From Escherichia coli (GTDB lineage: Bacteria > Pseudomonadota > Gammaproteobacteria > Enterobacterales > Enterobacteriaceae), in the NCBI RefSeq assembly GCF_003334385.1, contig NZ_QOWN01000099.1: a stretch of 2,537 nt of DNA; one strand, written 5' to 3'. This document shows positions 1 to 1,956 of this stretch, in pieces. Within the stretch, counting starts at the first letter, position 1; each line of letters begins with the position of its first letter. Under the pieces are notes generated by a model. That model had not been told where the DNA came from. It worked only from the letters and a program-made list of their open reading frames with translations, and did not search any database. The translations under genes and the position numbers were made by a program.

Positions 1-1908
1 CGGACGCTGACGCTCGACCGTGAAATCACGCTGCCATCCTCCGGTACCACGCTGATAAGCCTGGTTGACGGAAGTGGCAATCCGGTCAGCGTGGAGGTTC
101 AGTCCGTCACCGACGGCGTGAAGGTAAAAGTGAGCCGTGTTCCTGAGGGTGTTGCTGAATACAGCGTGTGGGGGCTTAAGCTGCCGACGCTGCGCCAGCG
201 CCTGTTCCGCTGCGTGAGTATCCGTGAGAACGACGACGGCACGTATGCCATCACCGCCGTGCAGCATGTGCCGGAAAAAGAGGCCATCGTGGATAACGGG
301 GCGCACTTTGACGGCGAACAGAGTGGCACGGTGAATGGTGTCACGCCGCCAGCGGTGCAGCACCTGACCGCAGAAGTCACTGCAGACAGCGGGGAATATC
401 AGGTGCTGGCGCGATGGGACACACCGAAGGTGGTGAAGGGCGTGAGCTTTATGCTTCGCCTGACCGTGGCAGCGGACGACGGCAGTGAGCGGCTGGTCAG
501 CACGGCCCGGACGACAGAAACCACATACCGCTTCAGGCAGCTGGCGCTGGGGAACTACAGGCTGACAGTCCGGGCGGTAAATGCGTGGGGGCAGCAGGGC
601 GATCCGGCATCGGTATCGTTCCGGATTGCCGCACCGGCAGCGCCTGTCACTATTGAACTGATACCGGGGTATTTTCAGATAACGGCGGTCCCGAAACTGG
701 CTGTATATGACCCGACGGTGCAGTTTGAGTTCTGGTTCTCGGAAAAGCAAATTATTGATATCAGGCAGGTTGAAACCAGCGCGCGTTATCTTGGTACGGC
801 GCTGTACTGGATAGCCGCCAGTAGCAATATTAAGCCGGGTTATGATTATTACTTTTATATCCGCAGTGTGAACACCGTTGGCAAATCGGCATTCGTGGAG
901 GCTGTCGGTCGGGCGAGCGATGATGCGGAAGGTTACCTGGATTTTTTCAAAGACAAGATAACCGAATCTCATCTCGGCAAGGAGTTGCTGGAAAAAGTCG
1001 ACCTGACGGAGGATAACGCCAGCAGACTGGATGAGTTTTCGAAAGAGTGGAAGGACGCTAACGATAAATGGAATGCCATGTGGGGCGTCAAAATTGAGCA
1101 GACCAAAGACGGCAAACATTATGTCGCGGGTATTGGCCTCAGCATGGAGGACACGGAGGAAGGCAAGCTGAGCCAGTTTCTGGTTGCCGCTAACCGTATC
1201 GCGTTTATTGACCCGACAAACGGGAATGAAACGCCGATGTTTGTGGCGCAGGGCAATCAGATATTCATGAACGACGTGTTCCTGAAGCGCCTGACGGCCC
1301 CCACCATTACCAGCGGTGGCAGTCCTCCGGTATTTTCCCTGACATCAGACGGAAAGCTGACCGCTAAAAATGCGGATATCAGTGGCAGTGTGAATGCGAA
1401 CGCCGGGACGCTCAACAATGTCACGGTAAATGAAAACTGTACGATTAAGGGCATGCTGGAGGCGACTCAGGTCAGAGGTGACTTCGTTAAAGCTGTATCC
1501 AAATCATTTCCGAAACAGGCTGGTACGTGGGGTAATACGGAAACACCAAACGGGACGGTTACAGTCACCATCAGCGATGATCATAACTTTGACCGTCAAA
1601 TCATTATTCCGCCCATTATCTTTAACGGAATAGCGTATAGCGATCCGGGAAGTGGTAATAACCCGGGAGGTACAAGATACACGGGGTATGGTTTTGAAGT
1701 TCGCAAAAACGGTGTATTAATCGCATCCAGAGAAACTAAAGGGGCCATTCCCGGTAGCTACAGTGCGGTTATTGATATGCCGAGTGGCAGGGGAAGCGTC
1801 ACTCTGGAGTTTAAGGTTTTCCATAAAGGCAATCAGCGGGCAGGTAATATCACCGACTGTACGGTGATTGTGACCAAAAAAGCCGCTTCCGGCATCAGTA
1901 TTCGTTGA
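1..1908 (+). CDS. J: Phage tail-tip central fibre / host-specificity protein J, C-terminal ~636 codons (5'-partial; the gene starts upstream of the window)
   Basis: Frame +1 is open from nt 1 to the TGA at 1906-1908. The GTG at 91 reported by the ORF track is internal, since the frame has no stop upstream of it. The translation contains two fibronectin-III-like beta-sandwich segments (e.g. ...[27 protein letters not shown]... and ...[23 protein letters not shown]...). It also contains a segment (...[69 protein letters not shown]...[13 protein letters not shown]...) that I recognise as characteristic of lambda-family J proteins. It ends ...[10 protein letters not shown], whereas lambda J as I recall it ends ...KKQALGISVV. 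Its position immediately upstream of lom matches lambda genome order. Confidence 0.9.
346..915 (+). other. Two tandem fibronectin type III-like (Ig-like beta-sandwich) domains within J (approx. 346-630 and 631-915)
   Basis: Each ~95-aa segment has the alternating hydrophobic beta-strand pattern with a conserved Trp/Tyr core and ends with a Pro/Ala-rich linker ([12 protein letters not shown] at the first boundary). Boundaries are approximate and read by eye from the translation. Confidence 0.45.
1459..1908 (+). other. C-terminal receptor-binding domain of J (distal tip, host-range determinant); allele appears divergent from lambda
   Basis: In lambda-family J proteins the last ~150 aa form the receptor-binding domain. 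Here this segment (...[149 protein letters not shown]) keeps recognisable anchor motifs (DDHxFDRQI, IDMPxGRG, GIS at the terminus) but differs at most other positions from my recollection of lambda J. Hand-counted GC is ~46% in 1501-1620, against ~62% in 1-120. Confidence 0.5.
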
Positions 1909-1929
1909 AATTGTTATAACCCATATAAG

Positions 1930-1956
1930 GGCACCAGAAATGGTGCCTTTTTTATT
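1930..1956 (+). terminator. Rho-independent (intrinsic) terminator downstream of J
   Basis: Perfect 7-bp inverted repeat GGCACCA (1930-1936) / TGGTGCC (1941-1947) with a GAAA tetraloop (1937-1940), followed immediately by TTTTTTATT (1948-1956). It lies 22 nt after the J stop codon. Confidence 0.6.

Follow-up and report, generated by a model that had tools for sequence, protein, structure and literature searches.

A lambda-like tail fiber protein J from Escherichia coli ends in a 434-type receptor-binding tip, most likely specific for OmpC

Our data show a J tail fiber that is lambda-like over most of its length and ends in a receptor-binding domain (RBD) of the 434 class. With good confidence we propose that the loops of this domain have been replaced on a lambda-like fiber, that the receptor is most likely OmpC and not LamB, and that the tip, the terminator behind it and lom were exchanged as one module. 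The window, i.e., the whole stretch of 2,537 nucleotides (nt) of E. coli contig NZ_QOWN01000099.1 that was analyzed, had been predicted to encode a lambda-type J with a substituted distal RBD, a host-range allele; the Pfam match of the tip (PF12421), its low amino acid (aa) identity to lambda J and its membership in the 434/h434 class all agree with this prediction. The finding is correct, and it is an ordinary one: a known h434 allele of J, in which nothing departs from the known picture. The host-range phenotype of h434 has been known since the 1970s, and near-identical tips are already annotated in many phage and prophage records.

Results

Frame 1 of the plus strand is open from nt 1 and ends with a TGA stop at positions 1906 to 1908. 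The open reading frame and its translation identify these 636 codons (stop included; positions 1 to 1908, plus strand) as the 3′ part of a lambdoid J gene, encoding the central tail fiber or tip attachment protein. The protein aligns end to end with residues 503 to 1132 of lambda J and corresponds to residues 503 to 1137 of J of phage 434 (1,137 aa), in which the position of the stop is conserved. It matches the lambda J structure 8iyk at residues 503 to 1131 (E = 0) and was assigned to PHROG 2148/31. Two Ig/FNIII-like domains of the lambda-like type occupy positions 322 to 948 on the plus strand, Ig_J (Pfam PF24421; aa 108 to 212, E = 2.3e-42) and Ig_J_second (PF24489; aa 214 to 316, E = 3.6e-38). 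They are followed by the Phage_Tail_Tip region, comprising the helical shaft and the beta-prism fiber (PF09327; positions 1030 to 1410, plus strand, aa 344 to 470, E = 3.6e-33), which is 94 to 97% identical to lambda in the nucleotide identity profile. At the C-terminus of J, aa 499 to 634 (nt 1495 to 1902, plus strand) match Ig_GpJ_C (PF12421, [quoted passage not shown]) with E = 1.2e-25, covering model positions 1 to 134 of 135. On the minus strand, an antisense open reading frame of 123 aa (1717 to 2088) spans the end of J, the terminator and the start of lom; it is presumed to be spurious.

Nucleotide identity to lambda is 94.3% over positions 1 to 1440 and drops to 48.9% over 1459 to 1908. 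Mismatches are sparse to about 1430 and dense from 1446 to 1459, which marks an abrupt mosaic junction and cannot be put down to noise. The breakpoint, the drop in identity, the Pfam match and the predicted fold together delimit a lambda-divergent, 434-class distal module of J at positions 1446 to 1908 on the plus strand. The original prediction of a lambda-type upstream J with about 150 divergent codons at its end is thereby borne out, and its left boundary, 1459, was right to within about 15 nt, since the mismatch density rises at 1446 to 1459. Over the last 150 aa, identity to lambda J amounts to 36% by BLASTP (56/155, E = 7e-28) and 36.1% by tblastn, far below the 90% identity above which the tip would have had to be regarded as an ordinary lambda allele. 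The lambda tip gave no blastn match to the tip of the window, even in distant mode with 11-base words. All the anchor motifs that had been said to persist are indeed present in the alignment with lambda: DDHNFDRQI (DDHPFDRQI in lambda), IDMPSGRG (VDMPAGRG) and the C-terminal GISIR (GISVV).

The GC content along the window is 62.5% in positions 1 to 600, 51.3% in 601 to 1458 and 47.6% in the tip. The tip had been described as lower in GC than the 5′ part of the window, which is literally true, but the horizontal acquisition read from this difference is poorly supported by it. The GC content of lambda J falls from 62% to 53% at the equivalent place, and because lambda J has the same gradient, with most of the drop starting near nt 600, the argument is mostly an artefact. 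Low GC was therefore rejected as specific evidence of horizontal acquisition of the tip. The sole tip-specific difference is that between 55.3% in lambda and 47.6% in the window.

The tip falls into the 434/h434 allele class of J, which is well populated and clearly set off from other classes. It is identical to the tips of phage 434 (OL657226; sequenced in 2022, PMC9119081) and of lambda h434 imm21 (OM418627) in 144 of 150 aa and in 91.6% of nucleotides, without indels, and it shares the indel pattern of 434 relative to lambda over the full length of the tip. The six differences from 434 are S17A, Q21K, A22V, N32D, S62D and R112G (tip numbering), three or four of which lie in or beside hypervariable segments. 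Closer still are the tips of phi458, an APEC prophage (150/150 aa), and of Perceval, an LF82 prophage (149/150 aa); together with those of Stx1a and Stx2c phages of O157, they are 99.3 to 100% identical to the tip of the window at the protein level. Further members are the cdtI phage, mEp460 and the long-tailed Stx1a, Stx2c and Stx2a phages of O157. Tips in the phage collection fall into two groups by aa identity, with 74 records at 90% or more, 169 below 60% and nothing in the gap.

The 14 sites that vary among nine class members are concentrated within or next to hypervariable segments A, B and D and the MPSGRG turn. The nucleotide divergence between window and 434, 8 to 12% over positions 1401 to 1800, is mostly synonymous (dS 0.33), with a dN/dS of 0.07; within the 434 class, dN/dS ranges from 0.07 to 0.15. 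These values indicate strong purifying selection on the tip, which argues for a maintained function. Identity to 434 stays at 88 to 92% up to about position 1800 and is about 100% thereafter (1801 to 2300), whereas identity to Perceval is 99 to 100% throughout 1401 to 2300. Since the identity to 434 jumps near 1800 while that to Perceval is constant, a further recombination breakpoint appears to lie inside the tip within the 434 class.

The divergence from lambda runs past the stop codon of J. What was exchanged relative to lambda thus comprises the J tip, the terminator and lom, and reaches at least as far as the window does. Between J and lom lies an intrinsic-terminator-like hairpin with a 10-bp stem and a 4-nt loop (1927 to 1950, plus strand), extending to 1958 with its T-run. 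Its sequence does not differ from those of 434 and Perceval (100% identity), and the record of phage 434 annotates a terminator at the same place between J and lom; an Rfam scan of the window returned no family match. The first 186 codons of lom, encoding an outer-membrane protein of the Ail/Lom type (PHROG 108, E = 1.4e-99), follow at positions 1978 to 2537 on the plus strand. They represent the 434-type allele, with 98% nucleotide identity to 434 and only 42% aa identity of the protein to lambda Lom. Over the whole of 1909 to 2537, intergenic DNA and lom are 98 to 100% identical to 434 and Perceval. In PhiR11_1, a 434-class tip is followed directly by stf, without lom, and the linkage of tip and lom is therefore not obligatory.

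The left crossover of lambda h434 imm21 (record positions 17619 to 17637) corresponds to window positions of about 609 to 627, and the hybrid consists of 434 sequence from there rightwards, including the tip. Hence, the genetically defined h434 host range physically includes this tip. Since the hybrid also carries lom, stf and tfa of 434, its sequence alone leaves either the J tip or the side fiber as the possible determinant of OmpC use. In the second Ig/FNIII domain of the window, lambda, 434, Perceval and almost every phage record match a patch at about 620 to 880 with a nucleotide identity of only 84 to 88%; the few exceptions reach 90 to 95%, and the flanking DNA is 94 to 99% identical. 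At the same place, the GC content steps down from 62% to 51% and the hybrid has its left crossover; the junction here may be prone to recombination.

Residues 466 to 635 of the J protein in the window were modeled with AlphaFold2 on an alignment of 16 sequences of tip classes (mean pLDDT 81). The best PDB matches of the model in Foldseek were the RBD of lambda J (8xck, 8xcj) and gpJ 713 of A8, alone and in complex with OmpC of EDL933 (9wca, 9wcb; released in 2026), with TM scores of 0.76 to 0.78 and E values of about 1e-14; the next matches had TM scores below 0.45. The tip is thus predicted to fold as an Ig-like beta-sandwich like the solved RBD of lambda J (TM 0.77). Across the 16 tip classes, the alignment shows a conserved beta-strand framework, and the indels lie in four hypervariable segments, A to D, delimited on the plus strand by entropy and identity. 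Identity to lambda is 47/93 (51%) in the framework versus 6/61 in the four segments. Judged from the variability in the alignment and the secondary structure of the model, segments A to D would correspond to the loops L1 to L4 of lambda.

Segment A (1513 to 1548; 12 aa, RQRESSVDWP in lambda) is a candidate receptor-facing loop and aligns with S1012 of lambda, which we take to be a site of host-range mutations. Segment B (1627 to 1689; 21 aa) is 6 aa longer than its lambda counterpart and may be the extra OmpC-contacting loop predicted for the 434 fiber (PMC12502783). The third of these segments, C (1726 to 1758), comprises 11 aa. Segment D (1810 to 1848; 13 aa) is shorter than in lambda, includes three of the variable positions of the 434 class and aligns with D1107 of lambda, presumably another host-range mutation site.

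The tip allele is not unusual. In addition to the 74 phage records, a 434-class tip was found in 2,111 of 5,426 complete E. coli genomes in RefSeq, and with a share of about 39% the allele must be called ordinary. The E. coli tips fall into three identity bands, with 647 records at or above 99%, 447 at 95 to 99% and 1,006 at 90 to 95%. The best complete-genome match to the whole window is a chromosomal prophage of strain SCU-104 (99.2% identity). A search for homologous proteins returned mostly short J fragments, which are informative only on where the tip occurs (E. coli, E. albertii and Shigella); partial proteins carrying it were named from E. albertii and Shigella sonnei. An HMMER scan of 1.84 billion cluster representatives retrieved only 126 relatives, which makes the J-tip family a narrow one, divided into several clearly distinct identity bands. 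For lambda-like phages of the gut, four main J clusters have been described (Mathieu et al. 2020, PMC6969025).

Discussion

The original prediction held that the receptor could not be named from the sequence. Here a correction is due: because the tip is 96% identical at the protein level to that of 434, OmpC is its most likely receptor, and we infer the same for this exact allele. According to a statement in Ge & Wang 2024 (PMC11101478), which cites Fuerst & Bingham 1978, OmpC is the receptor of phage 434 and was also bound by a lambda in which the 434 tail-fiber gene stood in for J. A study of 2025 modeled the 434 fiber as a trimer docking on trimeric OmpC (PMC12502783). In the window, all four loop segments are replaced on a framework and a fiber that are lambda-like, and this points to OmpC, as for 434, and not to LamB. 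A lambda-type, LamB-binding tip (lambda J residues of about 983 to 1132, including L1 to L4) was excluded as a candidate by the identity of 36% overall and 6/61 in the loops.

The literature on the PhiR/mEp332 phage set, IdasGreatGrand, HannyBb, Ayreon and Perceval yielded no receptor data, nor did the papers found on phi458, Perceval and the Stx1a and Stx2c phages of O157 report a receptor. A receptor-prediction preprint of 2026 covers GpJ of Drexlerviridae and not the 434 class. Stf of Ur-lambda also binds OmpC (PMC11338833).

How such a tip would work can be modeled on lambda. The J trimer of lambda ends in three Ig-like RBDs, each of which inserts four bottom loops (L1 to L4) into a LamB monomer; binding spreads the bases of the RBDs, and the change moves up the beta-prism and the helical shaft and opens the tail tip (PMC11101478). 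In our model, three J chains would form the fiber, and their distal Ig-like domains would each present four loops to a trimeric outer-membrane porin. Binding to the porin would spread the RBDs, the change would travel up the fiber, and the tail tip would open for DNA ejection. The beta-sandwich framework and the fiber above it are lambda-like, with all four loop segments replaced, and the tip would move together with the terminator and the 434-type lom as a single recombination module.

One variant of this model deserves consideration, namely, that the tip is of the 434 class but that the phi458/Perceval-type sub-allele has a shifted or narrowed specificity, toward particular OmpC variants, or also toward OmpF or another porin. 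The six aa that differ from 434 lie in or near loops, 14 sites vary among nine class members, and the natural OmpC-binding gpJ chimeras A8 and 1A2 differ strongly in their performance across 23 OmpC variants (PMC11338833). Lambda, as mentioned in PMC11336670, gains the use of OmpF with about four substitutions in J. It is imaginable that the sub-allele is tuned to different natural OmpC variants and that the three identity bands in E. coli genomes (647, 447 and 1,006 records) are distinct host-range types. However, a dN/dS of 0.07 to 0.15 speaks of conservation and not of diversifying selection, and phages with an identical or near-identical tip grow on K-12 hosts, as does 434. We therefore consider both the shift in specificity and the reading of the bands as host-range types unlikely.

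Less likely still is a decaying J, left behind in a cryptic prophage and devoid of adsorption function. Many J copies in E. coli sit in defective prophages, and the best complete-genome match to the window is itself a chromosomal prophage (99.2%). Against decay stand the frame of 636 uninterrupted codons, whose stop sits at the position conserved in 434, the strong purifying selection on the tip, and the identical tip protein in phi458, a siphovirus able to plaque on K-12 MC1061 (PMC9701743). We regard a loss of function as improbable. Finally, that the tip is an ordinary LamB-binding allele of lambda J, and that the original prediction simply had the lambda sequence wrong, can practically be dismissed, since the 94% nucleotide identity of the upstream J to lambda and the framework motifs common to both are outweighed by a tip with 36% aa identity, indels in all four loop segments and no blastn match to lambda.

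The preferred reading, a 434-class RBD on a lambda-like fiber, describes a textbook example of how the tip of a lambdoid J is exchanged as a module, with an allele that is already in GenBank in 434, in the lambda hybrid and in many prophages. Its practical consequence lies in annotation. A J that ends in this module of about 150 aa should be labeled "434-type, probably OmpC-binding" and not "lambda-like, LamB", and the label affects the predicted host range of prophages, the assessment of the spread of Stx phages and the choice of tips for engineered lambda-based delivery particles.

Of the known systems, phage 434 has the same architecture, the same length pattern (1,137 aa) and the same terminator, with 144/150 aa in the tip and 98% nucleotide identity in lom. 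It differs from the window in the six aa substitutions, in 8 to 12% of nucleotides over 1401 to 1800 and in the separate divergent patch at about 620 to 880. The phages phi458 and Perceval and the Stx1a and Stx2c phages of O157 carry the same tip, but their upstream J and the rest of their genomes are mosaic, and the Stx phages match the window only from nt 181 onwards.

The RBD of lambda J on LamB (PDB 8xcj/8xck) shares with the tip of the window its Pfam family, the predicted fold (TM 0.77), 51% identity in the framework and the fiber above it. It differs in its overall identity of 36%, in the four loop segments, which carry indels, and in its receptor, LamB. Because the fiber above the tip is the same, the triggering mechanism is presumably also that of lambda J.

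A8 gpJ on OmpC of EDL933 (PDB 9wca/9wcb, a chimera from Brödel et al. 2024) is a natural tip grafted onto lambda that uses OmpC. It shares the fold with the tip of the window (TM 0.77 to 0.78), but it is only 46 to 50% identical over positions 1396 to 1905 and has other loops, which makes it a different allele class. A8 as a carrier of the tip of the window was ruled out by this identity of its PDB sequence, and the supplementary text of PMC11338833, on the A8 and 1A2 chimeras, contained no DNA or peptide string matching the tip. 1A2 is probably a different tip class, too; it fails on K-12 OmpC, unlike 434-class phages. Since the A8 tip is only 46 to 50% identical, several unrelated-looking tip classes appear to converge on OmpC. 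The tail fiber of phi330, an EHEC siphophage, is OmpC dependent, too, and its trimeric tip is lambda-like and bears an Ig-like RBD, but this RBD is reported to be 35 to 40% identical to that of 434, with loops that are not conserved (PMC12502783). At least three tip classes, those of 434, phi330 and A8, are thus linked to OmpC, and the tip described here belongs to the first of them.
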